From Longimicrobiales bacterium (GTDB lineage: Bacteria > Gemmatimonadota > Gemmatimonadetes > Longimicrobiales > Gaopeijiaceae), in the NCBI GenBank assembly GCA_965238005.1, contig OZ250165.1, positions 1,664,001 through 1,728,000 on the forward strand: DNA of 64,000 bases, in the 5' to 3' direction. The notes under the pieces are model-generated. The model had not been told where the DNA came from. It did no database searches and saw only the letters and a list, made by a program, of their open reading frames with translations. This document shows, piece by piece, positions 53,339 through 62,115 of this stretch. The translations under genes and the position numbers were made by a program. Position 1 is the first letter of the stretch. Each line of letters begins with the position of its first letter.

Positions 53339-53745
53339 AGCAGCCGTAGTAAATGCGTTCCTCACGGCACGGGTGCTCTTGGTGGGTGGGTTCCTTTTGG
53401 CGCTTCCACATATCACCCGCAAGGGACTGCTCTTCGGCGTGTGTACGTCGGCGAGGACCTTGCCGCGGGAGACGCCGCGCGCCGGCTCCGGCAGCGCTGG
53501 AATCGCGGTTGCGTGGCGGTGATGGTGATGTCACTCGCTATCGGCCTGGCGATCAGTTTCGCGGGTTGGCCGGTCACGGGTAACCTCACCGGTACGCCCA
53601 AGGTCTGGCACGGAACAGGTGGAGGGATAACTTGGGCGTGTGAGGGGACCGCCCCTTCCTTGCACGACAGTTCTACCGGCCGCATTCGCTTTCGCCGGGG
53701 TCACGGTCATCTTAAAGGACTAGGGTGACGACTGGAGGTTCAAAG

Positions 53746-55098
53746 ATGACAGGTCGCACAGGCGTACCCGGTGGGTTGGAGCTCGGCATGCTTGCAATCG
53801 TCCTCTGCGCCCCACATCCCGGTTCGAGCCAAGACGTGCAGCAAACCTCTTGCTCGGATATCAGCGTGTTGAGATCGGTGGAAATCCTGGTCTCGTGTGC
53901 CACCACCGGGGACGAGCTCGCTCAGTTCCGCCTCGGGCTGATGTACGATCACGGTTTGGGGGTGCCCGAAGACGATGTTGAAGCAGTCCGCTGGTTTCGG
54001 CTAGCGGCAGAGCAAGGGCTTGCTGAGGCTCAACACAACCTCGGATTCCACTACGCAAACGGTGAGGGCGTTTCCGAAGACGATGTCGAAGCAGTTCGCT
54101 GGTACCGATTAGCGGCAGAGCAAGGCGACGCTAGGGCTCAAAACAACCTCGGATTCCAATACAGAAACGGTTATGGCGTCCCCGAAGACGACGCCGAGGC
54201 CATTCGCTGGTATCGATCAGCGGCAGAGCAGGGCGACGCTATGGCTCAATACAACCTCGGGAACATGCACGCCATCGGGGAGGGCGTTCCCGAAGACGAC
54301 ACCGAGGCAGTCCGCTGGCTTCGGCTAGCCGCAGAGCAAGGCCATGCTCGAGCTCAGTCGAATCTCGGGATCATGTACGCCGACGGTGAGGGCGTTCCCG
54401 AGGAGGCTGCCGAGGCAATCCGTTGGCTTCGGCTGGCTGCTGAGCAAGGGCTTGCTCGGGCTCAATACAACCTCGGGCTCATGTACGCCAACGGGGAGGG
54501 CGTTCCTGAGGATGATGCCGAGGCAGTTCGGTGGCTTCGGCTGGCCGGTGAGCAAGGCTATGCTAGGGCTCAATACAACCTCGGGAACATGTACGCCAAC
54601 GGTGAGGGCGTTCCCGAGGATGATGCCGAGGCAGTCCGTTGGTATCGGCTGGCCGCTGAGCAAGGGCTTGCTCGGGCTCAATACAACCTCGGGCTCATGT
54701 ACGCCAACGGGGAGGGTGTTCCCGAGGACCATGCTGAGGAAGTTCGGTGGCTTCTGTTGGCTGCTGAGCAAGGCTATGCTCGGGCTCAATTCAACCTCGG
54801 GAACATATACGCCAACGGTGCAAGTGTGCCCGAGGATGATGTTGAGGCAGTCCGTTGGCTTCGGCTGGCTGCTGAGCAAGGGCTTGCTCGGGCTCAATAC
54901 AACCTTGGGAACATGTACGCCAACGGGGAGGGCGTTCCCGAGGACTATGTCCTCGCATATGAGTGGTACGACATCTCCGCGGCCCAAGGAAATGAGCTCG
55001 CGCAGAAGAACAAAGAGATAATCGTGCAGCGGATGACCCGCGAGCAGATCGCCGAGGCCCAGAGGCTTTCCCGCGAGTGGCTCGAACAGCATCGCTGA
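53746..55098 (+). CDS. Secreted Sel1-repeat protein (10 repeats)
   Basis: 36-aa AQYNLG.MY.NGEGVPED..EA.RW.RLAAEQG repeats; GGAGG RBS. Confidence 0.95.
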   Translation: MTGRTGVPGGLELGMLAIVLCAPHPGSSQDVQQTSCSDISVLRSVEILVSCATTGDELAQFRLGLMYDHGLGVPEDDVEAVRWFRLAAEQGLAEAQHNLGFHYANGEGVSEDDVEAVRWYRLAAEQGDARAQNNLGFQYRNGYGVPEDDAEAIRWYRSAAEQGDAMAQYNLGNMHAIGEGVPEDDTEAVRWLRLAAEQGHARAQSNLGIMYADGEGVPEEAAEAIRWLRLAAEQGLARAQYNLGLMYANGEGVPEDDAEAVRWLRLAGEQGYARAQYNLGNMYANGEGVPEDDAEAVRWYRLAAEQGLARAQYNLGLMYANGEGVPEDHAEEVRWLLLAAEQGYARAQFNLGNIYANGASVPEDDVEAVRWLRLAAEQGLARAQYNLGNMYANGEGVPEDYVLAYEWYDISAAQGNELAQKNKEIIVQRMTREQIAEAQRLSREWLEQHR

Positions 55099-55280
55099 GT
55101 TTGGAATCTGCGTCCTAAATGGGTCGGGCGTACTGCCCGACCTCGTCGGAGCCGACCTCGGCCAGACGAAGCTAACTGAGTGCGAATCTCGGCGAGGCGA
55201 AACTGGGAAGTGGATCCGGGGACGTATAGATTGGACTTCTTCGTAGCGCACGATTAGGGGGTTGCCTTGTGGCTTCTCCC

Positions 55281-55308
55281 TTGACAGGGGGCTTCTGGCG
55301 ATTAGCGT
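55281..55308 (+). promoter_or_regulatory. Putative sigma70 promoter for the cys leader region
   Basis: TTGACA (55281-55286), 16 bp, TAGCGT (55303-55308). Confidence 0.5.
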
Positions 55309-55360
55309 TGTTCTTTGGAGGATGGGTCACAAAACAGATGTGCGTAAAAGGACGCTGGTC

Positions 55361-55432
55361 GTGATACTCAACAGTTGTTGTTGCCGATGTTCTTGTCCGA
55401 GCCCGGTGGGGTGTCGGGGAGACGTCGTATAG
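55361..55432 (+). CDS. Cys-rich leader peptide 1 (MILNSCCCRCSCPSPVGCRGDVV; alternative ATG at 55322)
   Basis: AAAGGA RBS 8 nt before GTG; 6 Cys codons, 5 of them within 7 codons; TAG at 55430. Confidence 0.75.
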   Translation: MILNSCCCRCSCPSPVGCRGDVV

Positions 55433-55460
55433 GCATACACGCGACTGGATTCCCTGAAGC

Positions 55461-55488
55461 GCCACCGGAGACATTCGGTGGCTTTTTT
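55461..55488 (+). terminator. Attenuator terminator 1
   Basis: GCCACCGGA-GACA-TTCGGTGGC-TTTTTT; its 5' arm can alternatively pair with CCGGTGG (55403-55409). Confidence 0.85.
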
Positions 55489-55508
55489 GTGAGGATTATT
55501 TCCCAGAT

Positions 55509-55544
55509 CAAAAAGGCCATCGGGTTTCGCCGCTGGCCTTTTTG
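55509..55544. terminator. Bidirectional-type intrinsic terminator hairpin
   Basis: CAAAAAGGCCA...TGGCCTTTTTG 11-bp perfect outer stem. Confidence 0.7.
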
Positions 55545-55639
55545 TTCGAACCGGGTAGGACAGGCAGCGGAAGAACTGGAAAACTTAGGACGAGGTATTC
55601 GAAGGCGTGCGGTTCCATGAAGATCTGGAGGTTTTGGAG

Positions 55640-55720
55640 ATGACTCCACGGACGGCCATGTGTTGTTGTTGTTGTTGCACGGTAACGCCTAGAGAGGGGC
55701 GCGTTCCGACGAGTCGTTGA
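55640..55720 (+). CDS. Poly-Cys leader peptide 2 (MTPRTAMCCCCCCTVTPREGRVPTSR)
   Basis: GGAGG RBS at 55627-55631, ATG 55640, six consecutive Cys codons 55661-55678, TGA 55718. Confidence 0.88.
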   Translation: MTPRTAMCCCCCCTVTPREGRVPTSR

Positions 55721-55744
55721 GAAGAAACCAAGACTCAAGCGAAC

Positions 55745-55777
55745 GCCGCGGCCCCTCGAGGGTCGCGGCTTTTTTTT
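55745..55777 (+). terminator. Attenuator terminator 2
   Basis: GCCGCGGCCC-CTCGA-GGGTCGCGGC-T8; competes with antiterminator 55694-55757. Confidence 0.9.
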
Positions 55778-55829
55778 GGGTCTCAACTCTGGAAGAAAGC
55801 ATGTTGAAATTGAAATCGGAAGGCAGCAG

Positions 55830-56528
55830 ATGACTGCGGCGACAGCGGGTATCGAAGACGTGAGATGGATCAACGAACGGCTCGAGGGAGCACATCCTTC
55901 GGACGCCATTCGCTGGGCCGTCGAGAACGTAACGCCCGGGCGGCTGATCGTGGCTTCTTCGTTCGGGTCCACGGGGATGGTGAATCTTCACCTGCTCGCG
56001 GAGATCGCGCCTCAGGTGCCCGTTGCATTCGTGGACACGCTGTACCACTTCCCTGAGACCCTGGAGCATGCCGAGCGGGTGAAGGCACACTATGGCCTCG
56101 ATGTGCGCGTCTACCGGCCCGCCGCGTCACGTGCGGCGTTCCAGGCGAGGTACGGGGAGCGGTTGTGGGAACGTGACTTGGAACTCTTTCATCGACTCAC
56201 GCGGGTCGAGCCCATGAAGCGGGCCCTCCGTGGCGTGGAGGGATGGATCACCGGGCGGCGCCGGGACCAGGCAGCCAGCCGTGCCGCTCTGGCCCACGTG
56301 GAGGTTGGGGATCGCATCAAGATCAACCCGCTGGCCTCTTGGCCGGCCGAAGAGGTTTGGTCCTTCATCCGCGCGAACGGGGTGCCGTACAACCCGCTCC
56401 ACGACCTCGGCTACCAGAGCCTCGGCGACCAACCTCTGACAACGCCCGTTTCCGAGGAAGAGCACGAGCGGGCCGGTCGGTGGAGGGGGAGCCAACGTTT
56501 GGAATGCGGCATACACGCCCTGACGTAA
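55830..56528 (+). CDS. cysH: Phosphoadenylyl-sulfate (PAPS/APS) reductase
   Basis: SSFG, FVDTLYHFPET, WITGRRRDQ, KINPL..W, PYNPLHD.GY.S.G, ERAGRW, C-terminal ECGIH. Confidence 0.95.
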   Translation: MTAATAGIEDVRWINERLEGAHPSDAIRWAVENVTPGRLIVASSFGSTGMVNLHLLAEIAPQVPVAFVDTLYHFPETLEHAERVKAHYGLDVRVYRPAASRAAFQARYGERLWERDLELFHRLTRVEPMKRALRGVEGWITGRRRDQAASRAALAHVEVGDRIKINPLASWPAEEVWSFIRANGVPYNPLHDLGYQSLGDQPLTTPVSEEEHERAGRWRGSQRLECGIHALT

Positions 56529-56556
56529 AGCCTCATGCGGCACACGACTCAACGTC

Positions 56557-56607
56557 GCCGACCGGCGACCTGGATTCTCATAGCCGACCGGCGACCTGGA
56601 TTCTCAT
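56557..56607. repeat. 25-bp tandem duplication
   Basis: GCCGACCGGCGACCTGGATTCTCAT twice. Confidence 0.85.
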
Positions 56608-56728
56608 TTGGGATGGGAGTTGAAAAGGAAAATCGATGAGCGCGAATAAGGTTGAGCCATCGGAGCCACGGCATTGGAAGGGAAGGCTCAAGTGGCCCGA
56701 CTCGCGGTGACCGCACATCGGGGGAAGC

Positions 56729-57031
56729 ATGGCCCGGCTAGCCTCAAGAGCCGGCCAGGAAAAGTACATCGTCGACGGGACGCGGGGCGAGTACTGGCTC
56801 CCCGAGGAGATCTGGAACGAAGTCTGGGGTGTCATTGACGCAATAGCGAGGAATCACCGCTGGACGACGGCCGTGAAACCCGCACAGCGGGCCGCCATCG
56901 AGAGGCTGAGAGAGGTCCTGCTACACGTCGAGCAGAGCGGACTCGATCTCGCCACGATCGATAACCAGCAGCTGATCCGAGAACACCCGGGATGGCAGCA
57001 GGCCCGCGCTGCGGCCCCCGTAGGCCTTTGA
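56729..57031 (+). CDS. Hypothetical protein (possibly partial)
   Basis: LAS...QEKYI..GT..EY.LPEE...W...R.AA pattern; no family recognised with certainty. Confidence 0.45.
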   Translation: MARLASRAGQEKYIVDGTRGEYWLPEEIWNEVWGVIDAIARNHRWTTAVKPAQRAAIERLREVLLHVEQSGLDLATIDNQQLIREHPGWQQARAAAPVGL

Positions 57032-57244
57032 TTTTCCTTCCCTATCCTCACCCGAGTATGGCGTCCACTCTGCTCGTGAAGCCCACGATTGGTTCCTGCG
57101 CATGATACGCGACCACGAGGAATTCGAGGTGGTGACGGATGAGCCTGGGGAGTGGCCGATGCCGTTTTGTGGTGAGACGGTCAGGAAAGTCACGAGTCTG
57201 TGACGCGAATGATCATGCAAGAATCTGGGTCGATAAGGGCGATT

Positions 57245-57272
57245 ACTTGACATAATAGTGATTATAGGCACG
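57245..57272 (-). other. XerCD dif-like recombination site
   Basis: Minus strand CGTGCCTATAA-TCACTA-TTATGTCAAGT versus E. coli dif GGTGCGCATAA-TGTATA-TTATGTTAAAT (8/11 and 9/11). Confidence 0.65.
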
Positions 57273-57329
57273 TCAGGAAGCCGAGGAACATTATCACTAC
57301 GAAGAGGGCGATTCAGGGACCGCTGTCCG

Positions 57330-57692
57330 CTACGAGCCAACCGCGAAACTCCATGTCTCTGTTATCAACCCATCAATCATCAGTACGGCCACGTACGACC
57401 CACGGGGGAGGCTGGGGAAGGCTACGGCAACGTTTGTGCCCGCCTGGATATGGCCAGTATCTGTACCGGCTACCCGGCCTGATAGCTGCTGTAGAATGTT
57501 CACGGTGTATATCTTACCGCCGTACCCGACGATCTTCACGGCCACCACCTGACCGGTGCCGAAGTTGTGCATTCGTGGTGCTGATAACTCCGCCCAACGA
57601 GCCCGGTCGGTCGTGAACATCGCCTTCGTCGCACAGCCGGTGACCAAGAATACACTCAGGAACACGACTTGCCATCCAGCATGCCCTTTCAC
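57330..57692 (-). CDS. Small lipoprotein with Ig-like domain
   Basis: LVTGC lipobox; homologous by eye to the C-terminus of the 6188-6822 gene. Confidence 0.7.
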   Translation of the reverse strand: MKGHAGWQVVFLSVFLVTGCATKAMFTTDRARWAELSAPRMHNFGTGQVVAVKIVGYGGKIYTVNILQQLSGRVAGTDTGHIQAGTNVAVAFPSLPRGSYVAVLMIDGLITETWSFAVGS

Positions 57693-57902
57693 GTCGCCTC
57701 GCTGCTCTTGGGTCGGAATCTCGTGCCGGAGTGGAAGAGCGTACCGATAGATGTAGAAGCGGCTTTCCCATCCTGCACTCTACGCTCCACGCCTCTGTCT
57801 CTTGTTGTGTGTCAAATTACGTTACCGACCCTAGGAGCCACAACAGGGCCACCCATCTCGAGGAGGTACCGCGATCAGGGCGGCTCCGTCAGACTGGGCG
57901 AA

Positions 57903-58011
57903 CTCCACCATCCGCGCCTTGAACTCCGGCGGGTACCGTCCTCGGGTCCTTGGCATCGTGACACCTCCTGTACCTCAGTGTGGAAGTGTCCATCAAACCG
58001 GGCAAACTCCA
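57903..58011 (-). mobile_element. Left-end relic of a related IS3 element
   Basis: TGGAGTTTGCCCGGTTTGATGGACAC...ATG MPRTRGRYPPEFKARMVE, similar to the 6823-6935 left end. Confidence 0.8.
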
Positions 58012-58264
58012 CTCCAGGCACCTCGCCGACGCGTGGCTGCGGAGGGTAGAAGGGATTGCCGAGCTTGAGCCTCAGAAGGGAAGCCTCTGGCATGCATACA
58101 GGCGCAAGTGGGCCACTGAGAGAAAGCACCTTCCCGATGTAGACGTAGCTGCGGCTGGCGGCTGGAAGGGCACTGAGAGCCTCAAGACCGCCTACCAACA
58201 AGCGGACGAGGCCACTATCTTGCGTGTCGTCCTTGAGGCGGCTGAGTTGAGGGAAGCGAAGTGA
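58012..58264 (+). pseudogene. Tyrosine integrase C-terminal fragment
   Basis: WHAYRRKWATERK..P..DVAAAGGWK....L...Y catalytic box II, adjacent to a tRNA. Confidence 0.8.
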
Positions 58265-58361
58265 GAGCTTCCCCAACGTACACAGTAACGTACACACCCT
58301 CAGGTGAGGCCGGGTCTCCCAAGCCAGTCACATGGCTTCATTGTGGGAAGAAGGACCCTTA

Positions 58362-58435
58362 CGGGGCGTGGCGCAGTCCGGTAGCGCGCCTGCTTTGGGA
58401 GCAGGAGGTCCCCGGTTCGAATCCGGGCGCCCCGA
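58362..58435 (+). tRNA. tRNA-Pro (anticodon TGG)
   Basis: CGGGGCG/CGCCCCG acceptor, CCTGC-TTTGGGA-GCAGG anticodon arm, CCCGG-TTCGAAT-CCGGG T arm. Confidence 0.97.
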
Positions 58436-58526
58436 CTGATGTAACTGGTTGCTAGTATCAGCGTTACAGGAAACTCCTCTACGAGATTCTCGAGAGGGGT
58501 CTCTATGTTTCTCTCTTCGGCTGACG

Positions 58527-59936
58527 CTAATGCCCCCCCATGCCACCGTGGGAGCCCAGGGGCCCCGACCTCGAGCGGATGCGGTCCAGGAACTCCTGCT
58601 GTCGAGCCTGGAGCTGGGCCAATCCGATGAGGGCGACCAGATCGCCCTCGTTCAAGCCGCTCACGACCTGAGTGTAGTCCCAGTCATTCCAGTCGGTCAT
58701 CACCATGCGTGGCTCGATGGCTCCGTCCTCGCCCACCACGAACGCCACGGCGCGCCTCGCCCCCCGCATGGGCCCAGCCGCATTCGGGCCACCCCTGTGC
58801 CGCGCCGCCGCTGCGCCATCGCCGGACTGGTGAAACGCCCTACTCCGGCCCTCGCCGTCGCGTGAGTAGCCTCCCTCGTCCCCGTGATTCGCACCAGCCG
58901 GACGACCACCTTCGGGCCAGGCTCCAGAGCCGCCACCACGCTCGCGACCACCCGCCAACATGCTTTGCATGTCGATGGCATCGGCGTCGAGGCCGAGCAC
59001 CATCGCTGCGGGAATCGCATCCTGCGGCATGACCACGGCGTTGTTCGGAATCAACAGTACGTCGGGGACCTCAGCGATCTCGATCCCAACCTCGGAGTTC
59101 ATCCCGGGCCTGAGGAGCCGTGAGGCGTTGTCGAGTCGAACGATGACCGGGAACATGGTCACGTTCTGCTTGACAACGGCCTGGGGCTCAATCTTGTTCA
59201 CGACTCCGACGAACGTTCGATCAGGATACGCGTCGACCTTCACCATGGCCGTCATGTTGTCCAGGATCTCGCCCAATTCCGACTCGTCCACCAACGAGCG
59301 CACCTGCATAACCTCCAAGTTGGCCATGACCAGGAGTGTGGTTCCGCTAGAGACGTTCTGGGAAGCGGACTGGATGACCTGGCCCTCCTCCACGTTCTTT
59401 TCGAGGATCGTACCGGCAATGGGTGCACCGATCGTCACGTCCTCGAGGCGGAGCTGAGCCAACTCCATGTTGGTCTGGGCCTTTATGAGCGTAGCCTGGG
59501 AATTAGCGAATTCTAGGTTCCTGCTCTCGTGCTCCTGGGCCGAGATCACACCGGAGGCCATCAGCTCCTCTGAGCGTTTCAACTGCGCCTTCGAGATGTC
59601 GAAGCGCGTCTGGGCCACCTCGAGATCGGCTTTCGCTTGATCGAATTCGTTTCGAACATCCCGGGGATCGATCTCGGCCAGAAGGTCTCCTGGCTCTACC
59701 TCATCGCCGACGGCGACGTAGAGACGAAGAATCTCACCCGACGCCTTGGACTTGACCTCGACCTTCCGGATGGGCTCCACGTTACCGGTGGCGTCCACCG
59801 TGATCATGAGATCTCCACGTACCACGGCCGCGGTCTGGACTCCCGGAGCCTCTCCAGCTTCACCGATTCCGCAAGCAGCCAGGACCGGAAGCAGAAGAGT
59901 CGCTCCCCAGAGTCCAATCATTCGAGTCGGAGTCAT
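58527..59936 (-). CDS. Efflux RND/MacA-type periplasmic adaptor subunit (orphan here)
   Basis: Lipobox LAAC, ATG.VEP...VEVKSKASGEI, I.API.GTI, VDAYPDR.F.G.V..IEP. Confidence 0.92.
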   Translation of the reverse strand: MTPTRMIGLWGATLLLPVLAACGIGEAGEAPGVQTAAVVRGDLMITVDATGNVEPIRKVEVKSKASGEILRLYVAVGDEVEPGDLLAEIDPRDVRNEFDQAKADLEVAQTRFDISKAQLKRSEELMASGVISAQEHESRNLEFANSQATLIKAQTNMELAQLRLEDVTIGAPIAGTILEKNVEEGQVIQSASQNVSSGTTLLVMANLEVMQVRSLVDESELGEILDNMTAMVKVDAYPDRTFVGVVNKIEPQAVVKQNVTMFPVIVRLDNASRLLRPGMNSEVGIEIAEVPDVLLIPNNAVVMPQDAIPAAMVLGLDADAIDMQSMLAGGRERGGGSGAWPEGGRPAGANHGDEGGYSRDGEGRSRAFHQSGDGAAAARHRGGPNAAGPMRGARRAVAFVVGEDGAIEPRMVMTDWNDWDYTQVVSGLNEGDLVALIGLAQLQARQQEFLDRIRSRSGPLGSHGGMGGH

Positions 59937-60513: not shown

Positions 60514-62115
60514 GAGTCTGCGCCGCAGAAGCACAGCTGACTGAGCCGAATGGTCATCGAGCCGTCCGCGGCGAGGCGGATCCGGGTGATTGGGAGGTTG
60601 AGGACTTGTGTCTGCGACGGATCGGGAGAGCGGAATGGATGCGTTGGGGGGGGCAAGAGAGCTACGAGAGCCCTCGCGCCGGCAGATGCGGGTGAACCCT
60701 CGTGCAGTCATGCCGCCTGAAGGGTGTGCAGCCGCTTCACATTGAGTGCCAGGCACACGAGGGTCCACTCGGCCCGGACCTTCTCGAGGCCCCGGAAGCT
60801 GAATCGTCGAAAGCCCATCACTTCCTTGATCCAGCCGATGGGCGCCTCGGCCTGCGACTTTCGCCGTGCGTAGCGTCTGCGGCCATCTTCGCTCGCCAGC
60901 TTCTCCGCCATGCGGACTTTCGCCGGATATTCCTCCTTGTCAACCGTGGGGGCGGCCTTGCCCTCCCGGGCCAGCGCCACATACCCGTCGATGTCTCGCT
61001 CTTCCAGTTCCTCGAGATCCCGCTCGTTGCAATAGCCCGTGTCCGCCAGCACCTGCGCCGGCGTCTCGCCGTACGCTTGCGCCACCGCGTCGACCATGGG
61101 CACCAGCTGGCCCTGGTCGCTCGCGTTGTCCGTCACCTCGGCCCCGACCACCAGCTGGTTCTCCCCCTCCACGACCGTCTGTGCGTTGTAGCACTGCTGG
61201 AACCCCTCCGAACTCGTCTTCATGATCCGGCTCTCAGGGTCCGTGAAGTTGCTCTGCGCCGCCTCGTCCGGCTCTCCGTACTCCCGCTTGTAGGGCCTGC
61301 CGCCCTTCGGGTTGCGCGTCTGCCCCGGCTTGCGGCCCCGTGCGTCGTCCGCCGCTCTCTGCTCGGCTTCCAGGCGCGCCTTCGCCTCCCGGATCGCCGC
61401 CAGCCGGTCCTCGCGCCGCTTGAGCTCCTCCGGCACCTCGTCTCCGCATGCTTCCTCGCCGTAGCGCTCGTCTTCCGCTTCGTCCACCGCCTCGGCCCTC
61501 TCCAACAGCCCCCGGATCTCCGCCTCCAGCCGAGGCTCCCCGGTCACCATCCGGCCGTAGCTCATCGCCTTGCGCTTGTTCGCGTTCGCCCGAACCTTCG
61601 TCCCGTCCACCGACACCCTGCCAAGCCCCGCCAGCCCCAAGGCCCGCGCGAGCATCACCACCTCCACAAACACCGCCCGGAAATCCCCGAGATGGCGCTT
61701 GCGGAACTCGCACAGCGTCCGGTGCTTCGGGAAGTTCTCCGCCGCCAGCATCCGAAACGCGACATCCTCCTCCAGCTTCCTCGCCATCTTCCGCGACGAG
61801 AAGGTGCCCGTCGCATACGCGTAGATCAGCACCTTGACCATCATCCGAGGGTCGTACGGCGAGTTGCGCCGCCCGTCCCCCCGGTACCGCCCGTAGAACG
61901 CGCTCAGCTCCACCGCGTCCACCAGGTCGCTCACATGGTGCGCCAAATGACCCTCCGACACCCACTCCCGAAGATCCGGAGGCAGCAACAACATCTGCTC
62001 CGGATCGTACGGTCGAAATGTCGTTCCCATTCACCCCCCTCGGTGATCCGCAAGCCTTCCCAATGCCTTCGCTACCACCAAAGATAGCCGCCGCAGGGTT
62101 CTGCGGCGCAGACTC
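60514..62115 (-). mobile_element. IS1182-family insertion sequence, copy 4
   Basis: Perfect 17-bp IRs; CTAG duplicated at 60510 and 62116. Confidence 0.96.
60708..62030 (-). CDS. IS1182-family transposase
   Basis: Protein identical to 10738-12060. Confidence 0.95.
   Translation of the reverse strand: MGTTFRPYDPEQMLLLPPDLREWVSEGHLAHHVSDLVDAVELSAFYGRYRGDGRRNSPYDPRMMVKVLIYAYATGTFSSRKMARKLEEDVAFRMLAAENFPKHRTLCEFRKRHLGDFRAVFVEVVMLARALGLAGLGRVSVDGTKVRANANKRKAMSYGRMVTGEPRLEAEIRGLLERAEAVDEAEDERYGEEACGDEVPEELKRREDRLAAIREAKARLEAEQRAADDARGRKPGQTRNPKGGRPYKREYGEPDEAAQSNFTDPESRIMKTSSEGFQQCYNAQTVVEGENQLVVGAEVTDNASDQGQLVPMVDAVAQAYGETPAQVLADTGYCNERDLEELEERDIDGYVALAREGKAAPTVDKEEYPAKVRMAEKLASEDGRRRYARRKSQAEAPIGWIKEVMGFRRFSFRGLEKVRAEWTLVCLALNVKRLHTLQAA

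Follow-up and report, generated by a model that had tools for sequence, protein, structure and literature searches.

The DNA analysed here is a 64,000-nucleotide (nt) stretch from a Longimicrobiales bacterium of the phylum Gemmatimonadota (contig OZ250165.1, forward strand), referred to below as the window, and the element in question is the leader segment at 55627-55830, directly upstream of cysH. The cysH gene (55830..56528, plus strand, as are all features of the leader) encodes a 232-amino-acid (aa) protein of the phosphoadenosine phosphosulfate (PAPS) reductase type, which matches model NF002537 with 238.9 bits against a cut-off of 154 and also matches PF01507. The gene is monocistronic, with no long frame following it on the same strand, and is the presumptive target of the regulation discussed here.

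The segment begins with a Shine-Dalgarno-like GGAGG (55627..55631) located 8 nt 5' of the ATG of a short open reading frame, sORF2 (55640..55720), which has 26 codons and ends in a TGA at 55718-55720. The predicted product, MTPRTAMCCCCCCTVTPREGRVPTSR*, contains a run of six cysteine (Cys) residues encoded by five TGT codons followed by one TGC (55661-55678, codon positions 8-13). Behind the frame, a terminator scan detected an intrinsic terminator (55745..55777) with a 10-base-pair (bp) stem, a loop of 5 nt and a T8 tract; nine of the ten pairs in the stem (55745-55769) are G-C, its computed energy is -22.2 kcal/mol, and 52 nt separate the T tract from the cysH ATG. An initial annotation made from the sequence alone had listed the GGAGG, the start at 55640, the six Cys codons, the stop at 55718, the stem with its T8 and the 52-nt spacing, and all of these are in the sequence. 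It had also described a mutually exclusive antiterminator, which we recovered at 55694..55757: positions 55694-55706 pair with 55741-55757 (55694-55700 with 55751-55757 and 55701-55706 with 55741-55746), an inner helix joins 55711-55715 to 55732-55736, and the computed energy is -20.2 kcal/mol. This structure occupies 6 of the 10 nt of the 5' arm of the terminator, and its own 5' strand sits between the Cys run and the stop, starting 15 nt past the former and ending 12 nt short of the latter.

The reported element is the second stage, here termed stage B, of a leader of ~500 nt that contains two Cys frames and three terminators. The first stage, stage A, is built around sORF1 (55361..55432), which lies ~280 nt upstream of sORF2, starts with GTG and has the predicted translation MILNSCCCRCSCPSPVGCRGDVV*; five of its 6 Cys codons are clustered at 55376-55396. 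Terminator T1 (55461..55488), detected by the terminator scan, consists of a 9-bp stem (55461-55482) and a T6 tract, and terminator T2 (55509..55544), obtained by folding with a ribosome mask, is an imperfect GC hairpin between an A run and a T run. In the predicted stage A antiterminator (55403..55468), a strand from the sORF1 3' half (55403-55428) is joined to one that takes in the T1 5' arm (55441-55468), and a putative relay helix (55470..55528) would pair the T1 3' arm and U tract with the T2 5' arm and the A run next to it.

At its head the leader has a promoter-like TTGACA-N16-TAGCGT (55281..55308), a candidate site; both hexamers recur at the same place in relatives, and a consensus promoter scan of 55000-57000 did not flag the site. 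sORF1 starts ~50 nt past it and sORF2 ~330 nt past it. Between T2 and sORF2 no promoter was found by the same scan or by eye, and given this absence and the presence of sORF1, T1 and T2 upstream, we assign the reported element to the second stage of a tandem leader and infer that both stages lie on one transcript. Stage A is located upstream of stage B in 15/15 loci examined. The ~40 nt directly 5' of sORF2 (55594-55630) are strongly conserved wherever stage B is present, and no promoter or explanatory helix was seen there. A frame of 8 codons (ATG...TGA, 55338-55364) that includes a single Cys codon overlaps with its end the GTG of sORF1; its ATG has a counterpart in several relatives, among them L017 and L019, from which sORF1 can be read in frame with two additional Cys codons. 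An Rfam covariance-model scan of 54000-59000 at E <= 1 returned a transfer RNA (tRNA) and two chance microRNA matches and no T-box, S-adenosylmethionine (SAM) riboswitch or amino-acid leader, in agreement with the earlier statement that a T-box or SAM riboswitch is not involved.

Conservation and predicted folds of the leader

A cysH profile search using one genome per species gave 80 loci, the nearest in Longimicrobiales and other Gemmatimonadota and the farthest in cyanobacteria; the distribution of CysH is patchy, with matches in 11/61 related genomes when the genome studied here is counted. Stage B is present in L017, L019 and L020 (CysH identity 86-89%), missing in L016, L018 and L021, and shortened in L022. 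L021 retains the 3' arm of the stage B terminator and L022 the first half of sORF2. Because of these remnants, and because close relatives carry stage B, the sequence comparison indicates that stage B is ancestral in this Longimicrobiales clade and was then deleted in several relatives. A gap in G011/L018 had suggested a genome-specific insertion; this explanation was dropped on the same two observations. A metagenome scan with an 18-nt pattern from the element yielded 56 matching stretches, 15 with stage B and 41 matching by chance, and the resulting stage B set comprised 19 copies, 16 of them unique and 15 full length (duplicates L126, L127 and L156 and the cut copy L148 were excluded from the alignment).

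All 15 unique full-length copies retain the start (ATG, or GTG in one), the frame, the stop and the Cys run in the same frame, a conservation that the initial annotation had proposed as a check. The number of Cys codons is 4, 5, 6, 7, 8 or 10, changing by whole-codon insertions and deletions and accompanied by TGT/TGC swaps; the five or six residues ahead of the run vary freely, and the counterpart of the Shine-Dalgarno-like site is purine-rich (GGAGG/GGAG/GGAA). The 3' half of sORF2 and the hairpins are near-invariant, and since this extends to third codon positions, the constraint would act at the RNA level. Across the 15 sequences, 97.3% of cells are paired in the stage B terminator and 99.0% and 96.2% in the two core helices of the antiterminator, where the only changes are one-sided and compatible (U-A to U-G in 6 sequences and G-C to G-U in 1). 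Two extensions of the antiterminator had been drawn in the initial annotation; GAGTC/GACTC is kept in relatives, but TTG/CAA does not hold, pairing in 2/15 and 1/15 sequences.

Folding with and without ribosome-masked segments, another of the proposed checks, gave structures that follow ribosome position as an attenuation model needs. In a transcript cut at 55757, the minimum-energy fold is the antiterminator, either with free RNA or with a ribosome on the Cys codons, and with a ribosome at the stop just the outer 6 antiterminator pairs are left. In the full-length free RNA the terminator is formed and 55649-55657 pairs with the 55697-55708 region in a helix of the 1:2 type. The pairing partners of the sORF2 Cys tract are local, within the leader, and do not include the cysH ribosome-binding site. 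The z-score of the fold is modest (-2.70).

sORF1 is conserved more widely than stage B, in 17 unique aligned sequences and 3 variants, and T2 is found in 17/17 aligned sequences. Over the 17 unique sequences, 97.4% of cells are paired in T1, 78.6% in T2, 92.1% in the stage A antiterminator and 92.6% and 87.1% in the relay; covariation is weak, with only 3-4 pairs changed on both sides and weak controls. When a ribosome mask is placed on the first Cys codons, the sORF1 3' half (from 55403) pairs with 55441-55468, and in the same minimum-energy fold the relay helix forms and T1 and T2 are both open. With the ribosome absent or at the stop, T1 and T2 both form. T1 and T2 therefore appear in these models to be linked by a relay helix that would form only when T1 is open.

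Contigs from RNA libraries of four metatranscriptome runs in four studies, derived from relatives 88-99% alike, cover sORF1-T1-T2, part of stage B and cysH; one spans T1 and T2 into stage B and another lacks stage B, and as such contigs reveal neither ends, strand nor level and may include DNA, no inference on termination is drawn from them. A metagenome contig (L116) has both stages intact with cysH deleted save its last ~20 codons.

Cysteine leaders in the genome and across the phylum

Within 55000-57000, two terminator-like sites were found against 1.7 expected from shuffled sequence, which is not an excess. A strict scan of the whole 4.84-Mb genome, unlike these local statistics, is decisive on the question of chance. 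The scan collected short frames in which 4 or more of 8 codons are Cys and counted as strong terminators those with a stem of at least 8 pairs and at least 6 T in 8; a strong terminator followed 5 of the 135 Cys-rich short frames. These five are sORF1 and sORF2, each present identically at both copies of cysH, and one further leader before cysG and a sulfite reductase gene. The leaders favour TGT, the rarer Cys codon, which makes up 83% of Cys codons in stage B and 91% in stage A versus 28% in the long frames of the genome.

The cysG leader lies on the minus strand at G000:C1:3870796-3870879 (L014 8733-8880), encodes MSRFDHCACCCCRMTLAREGGSGAGCP* and has an 11-12-bp hairpin with a T8 tract. It is directly 5' of cysG, a siroheme synthase gene (NF007922, 402.5 bits), and a 772-aa NirA/sulfite-reductase-like gene, and it is kept before cysG in G001, G002 and G005, i.e. 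in 3/3 other genomes with a full-length homologue, locus L174 (genome G037) being left out of the comparison. Its 3' half is similar to the type II cysH leaders of other Longimicrobiales. No Cys leader was found in this genome ahead of sat or of two cysK-like genes, and CysD was not found in it with model TIGR02039. The initial proposal that sulfate assimilation as such is controlled by Cys-tRNA is thus too broad, as the leaders are restricted to cysH and the cysG-sulfite reductase pair. The possibility that stage B was copied from the cysG leader was ruled out, since blastn against the same genome matched just the two cysH copies. A candidate at G000:C1:4101159-4101230, from a loose scan with 66 hits, was dropped because a convergent GGDEF gene ends there.

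The second cysH copy belongs to a duplicated cassette. The 1292 nt at 55255-56546, comprising the promoter-like site, both leaders and cysH, recur at G000:C1:1745063-1746354 (L012, L013), 25.8 kb away, with two differences (56142 and 56532) and an identical leader. Each copy stands alone, with transposase or integrase genes in its neighbourhood. A 440-aa DDE transposase gene at 60708-62030 (minus strand) has many copies in the genome, one of them beside the second cassette, and an off-frame stretch of 46 codons within it, with CCCC inside, recurs dozens of times in the genome scan. Directly past the cassette, 56547-56610 holds two tandem copies of a ~25-nt unit, and for ~800 nt on the cysH strand, to ~57330, there is no frame of at least 120 aa; in G011 a cobA-like gene with the same orientation as cysH follows ~4 kb downstream of it. 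Upstream of the leader, 53725-55098 encodes a 457-aa protein with 10 Sel1 repeats, and a tRNA gene is located at 58362-58435.

The scan of cysH upstream regions in Gemmatimonadota that the initial annotation had called for revealed that such leaders are common. A Cys-rich frame with a terminator within 450 nt 5' of cysH was found in 34/50 Gemmatimonadota-type loci (one more was too short) and in 0/28 cyanobacterial and other loci from the same cysH search; these counts include kin and are not independent, and the Gemmatimonadota-type group contains L039, which is labelled Gammaproteobacteria and whose regrouping gives 33/49 versus 1/29. The hairpins are canonical GC stems followed by 5 to 8 T. 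Among the 16 Gemmatimonadota-type loci without such a leader, 12 have a long same-strand frame ending no more than 184 nt upstream of cysH, and these negatives are as expected if cysH lies inside an operon.

Several sequence types unrelated to one another occur among the leaders, such as ...CCCCRQAPGDRSALPSG* and M..TAMCCAMCCC..RGGSGRRRA*. Each type has, in the second half of its frame, a stretch similar to the terminator 3' arm, and the type II alignment includes an A-U to G-C exchange in the terminator between members. In 28 leaders the last clustered Cys codon is 30-63 nt from the stop and the stop 19-30 nt from the terminator, and the best duplex with the terminator 5' arm sits in the 3' half of the frame. 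Compared with dinucleotide shuffles, these duplexes had a mean z of -1.65 and 14/28 reached p <= 0.05, a count that includes rows ownW_A and L023, for which T2 was used instead of T1 and the relay helix was scored.

Proposed mechanism and alternatives

Taken together, the sequence and the modelled folds make it probable, in our assessment, that 55627-55830 is a ribosome-mediated, Cys-sensing transcription attenuator of the trp/his type, acting as stage B of the two-stage leader of a solitary cysH. The core of the initial proposal, an attenuator of this type before cysH, is borne out by conservation, helices and geometry; the anatomy it described was incomplete, as the element is the second stage of a tandem leader whose first stage had been overlooked.

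In the mechanism we propose, transcription would begin at the conserved promoter-like site near 55281-55308, and sORF1 would decide on T1 and T2. A ribosome stalled at its Cys codons would free the sORF1 3' half to pair with the T1 5' arm, and the freed T1 3' arm and U tract would base-pair with the T2 5' arm and its A run, so that a single decision may open both terminators. Transcripts that pass stage A would reach stage B, where translation of sORF2 would initiate at a Shine-Dalgarno site belonging to that frame. When Cys-tRNA is ample, the ribosome would run to the stop at 55718 and cover 55694-55706, the hairpin at 55745-55769 and its U8 would form, and transcription would terminate before cysH. 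With scarce Cys-tRNA, the ribosome would stall at 55661-55678, leaving 55694-55706 free to pair with 55741-55757; the terminator would be blocked and cysH transcribed. Two serial checkpoints on one signal should multiply and sharpen the response.

A more ambitious reading, which we put forward tentatively and would not favour over its negation, is that the leader is a three-terminator, two-sensor cascade on one signal with a near-digital response to Cys-tRNA charging. One stalled sORF1 ribosome would open two terminators through a domino of CCGGUGG/CCACCGG-type repeats (2:3 + 4:5 versus 3:4 + 5:6), and the second Cys frame would re-test the same signal at the third terminator. The gain could have been tuned in evolution by loss or retention of stage B and by longer or shorter Cys runs (4 to 10 codons). 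Together with the cysG leader and the other leader types, attenuation might then be the main regulator of the reductive sulfate branch across the phylum.

Several observations weigh against stage B as a working attenuator. Even with a ribosome stalled, an 8-bp terminator hairpin persists in the full RNA at equilibrium, so that read-through at stage B rests on a kinetic argument in which the antiterminator forms first. The stage B antiterminator is not significant against shuffles (z -1.51, p 0.085), and the proposed 1:2 helix is variable (86.8% paired in the 15 sequences) without compensatory change. The covariation that had been suggested as a check on the stage B helices is absent, as no pair of the terminator, the antiterminator or the 1:2 helix is changed on both sides, and the shuffle controls are uninformative; because the element is too conserved, this absence neither supports nor contradicts the helices. 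Conservation itself is partly a matter of ascertainment, as 11/15 aligned copies were found through the 18-nt element pattern and are by selection invariant over that stretch. There is an uncompensated C/C mismatch in the terminator stem of L019 and L103 and an antiterminator mismatch in L020, and stage B is deleted in four close relatives (L016, L018, L021 and L022), which implies that it is dispensable.

These points also bear on a first alternative, in which sORF1, T1 and T2 exert the regulation and stage B is a relic, dispensable or in decay, that would add a constitutive leak-stop at best. The four relatives that lost stage B retain stage A and cysH, the terminator is weakened in L019 and L103, L019 and L119 have just four Cys codons with a Trp codon within the run, and the lack of covariation would be compatible with decay. 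The full-length copies argue otherwise: start, frame, stop, Cys run and both helices are kept in all 15 as the residues before the run drift, a pattern of purifying selection on exactly the parts essential to an attenuator, and in some copies the run has expanded to 8 and 10 codons. We therefore consider the relic unlikely and a functional second stage the better account of stage B.

It is very unlikely, in our view, that the Cys frames sense Cys-tRNA post-transcriptionally, through translation or stability of the cysH messenger RNA, or through Rho, with the hairpins incidental. Precedent exists in that the sole experimentally studied Cys short frames act on translation, according to the portion of that report cited here (bioRxiv 10.1101/834739), and actinobacterial Cys leaders are described as lacking terminators in the cited part of PMC1262725. 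In the leaders analysed here, however, GC hairpins with 5 to 8 T follow the Cys frame in 34/50 loci, a frame segment complementary to the terminator 5' arm recurs in unrelated leader types, and the Cys tract folds locally rather than onto the cysH ribosome-binding site. That sORF1 and sORF2 are functional Cys-rich micropeptides, or the leader a small RNA gene with cysH a mere neighbour, is scarcely credible despite the conserved C-terminal peptide halves and a short RNA-library contig spanning sORF1 to T2, since conservation reaches synonymous positions and coincides with the helices, Cys-run length varies freely from 4 to 10, and unrelated leader sequences share only their architecture and the link to cysH or cysG.

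Significance and comparison with known systems

Cysteine biosynthesis is a textbook case of regulation by proteins such as CysB and CymR, and in Firmicutes by T-box and S-box RNAs. To our knowledge, the demonstrated cases of leader-peptide attenuation by cysteine have so far been confined to a translational device in mycobacteria, with further cases predicted for cysS. The device proposed here would be a classical terminator/antiterminator switch guarding the reductive steps of sulfate use, namely cysH, siroheme synthase and sulfite reductase, and it is common in a poorly studied and mostly uncultured phylum. As its mechanism is classical, it holds no surprise in principle. With two sensors for one signal, a relay, variants lacking stage B and Cys runs of differing length, these leaders offer a natural experiment on serial attenuators and dose-response. 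There is also a point for annotation, in that gene callers miss such frames and the hairpins would pass as terminators of upstream genes.

A search of full-text literature, with subscription journals outside its scope, gave no account of a Cys leader plus terminator upstream of cysH or in Gemmatimonadota. What is new here is the tandem layout, the apparent T1-T2 relay and the presence/absence polymorphism of stage B.

The closest mechanistic parallel is with the trp and his leaders, in which a run of codons for the end product precedes an intrinsic terminator, the antiterminator 5' strand is placed downstream of the regulatory codons but ahead of the stop, and the position of the ribosome decides the outcome; bioRxiv 10.1101/834739 summarises these systems. 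The leader described here resembles trpL and hisL of E. coli and Salmonella in its short frame with end-product codons, its terminator, its competing antiterminator and its ribosome-position logic. It differs in sensing cysteine, in its host among the Longimicrobiales (Gemmatimonadota) and in having two serial units, the first with two terminators; no homology is implied.

Attenuators with Cys codons have been predicted for cysS in other phyla. The uORFC-8-2 motif of Rhodobacterales, as presented in the cited part of PMC8632094, has two tandem Cys codons near positions 14-15 and a U run that fits an intrinsic terminator, and a predicted 10-codon leader of cysS in Deinococcus deserti, as far as the cited part of PMC4007540 describes it, has two Cys codons. 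Both were proposed in those passages to act by ribosome-mediated attenuation sensing Cys-tRNA (PMC8632094, PMC4007540). They share with the present leader a short upstream frame with Cys codons, and uORFC-8-2 also a terminator-like U run. Going by the same passages, the cysS leaders are single units with two Cys codons, unlike the present leaders, which precede sulfate-reduction genes, carry 4-10 Cys codons and occur in tandem. In a survey of premature terminators (PMC2965389), cysteine occurs in the reference list only.

Cys-codon runs in short frames upstream of cys operons are also known from actinobacteria, where comparative genomics (Seliverstov et al. 2005, PMC1262725), in the part cited, found no conserved terminator and left the mechanism open with Rho as a suggestion; here, unlike in that account, the terminator is the most conserved part. 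The polycysteine short frames of mycobacteria (Canestrari et al. 2020, bioRxiv 10.1101/834739) are similar in placing consecutive Cys codons before a cysteine-related gene and in using stalling as a read-out of Cys-tRNA, as the cited portion of that study presents them. There they are leaderless, have no terminator and act on translation; their Cys tract base-pairs with the Shine-Dalgarno site of the gene downstream, and a transcriptional reporter did not respond. The frames described here differ from that account in having their own Shine-Dalgarno sites, canonical terminators and a start that is probably not leaderless, and the leader is not a member of the mycobacterial polycysteine class.

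The tandem layout finds its nearest counterpart in the Salmonella mgtCBR leader, whose mgtM and mgtP frames, in the cited part of PMC3641672, form tandem attenuators for ATP and proline-charged tRNA. Like mgtCBR, the cysH leader has two short frames, each with terminators of its own, and both frames would belong to attenuators acting on transcription of the downstream gene. Going by that description, the mgtCBR frames respond to two different signals, whereas both frames of the cysH leader are Cys-rich, and its two stages should for this reason read the same signal.

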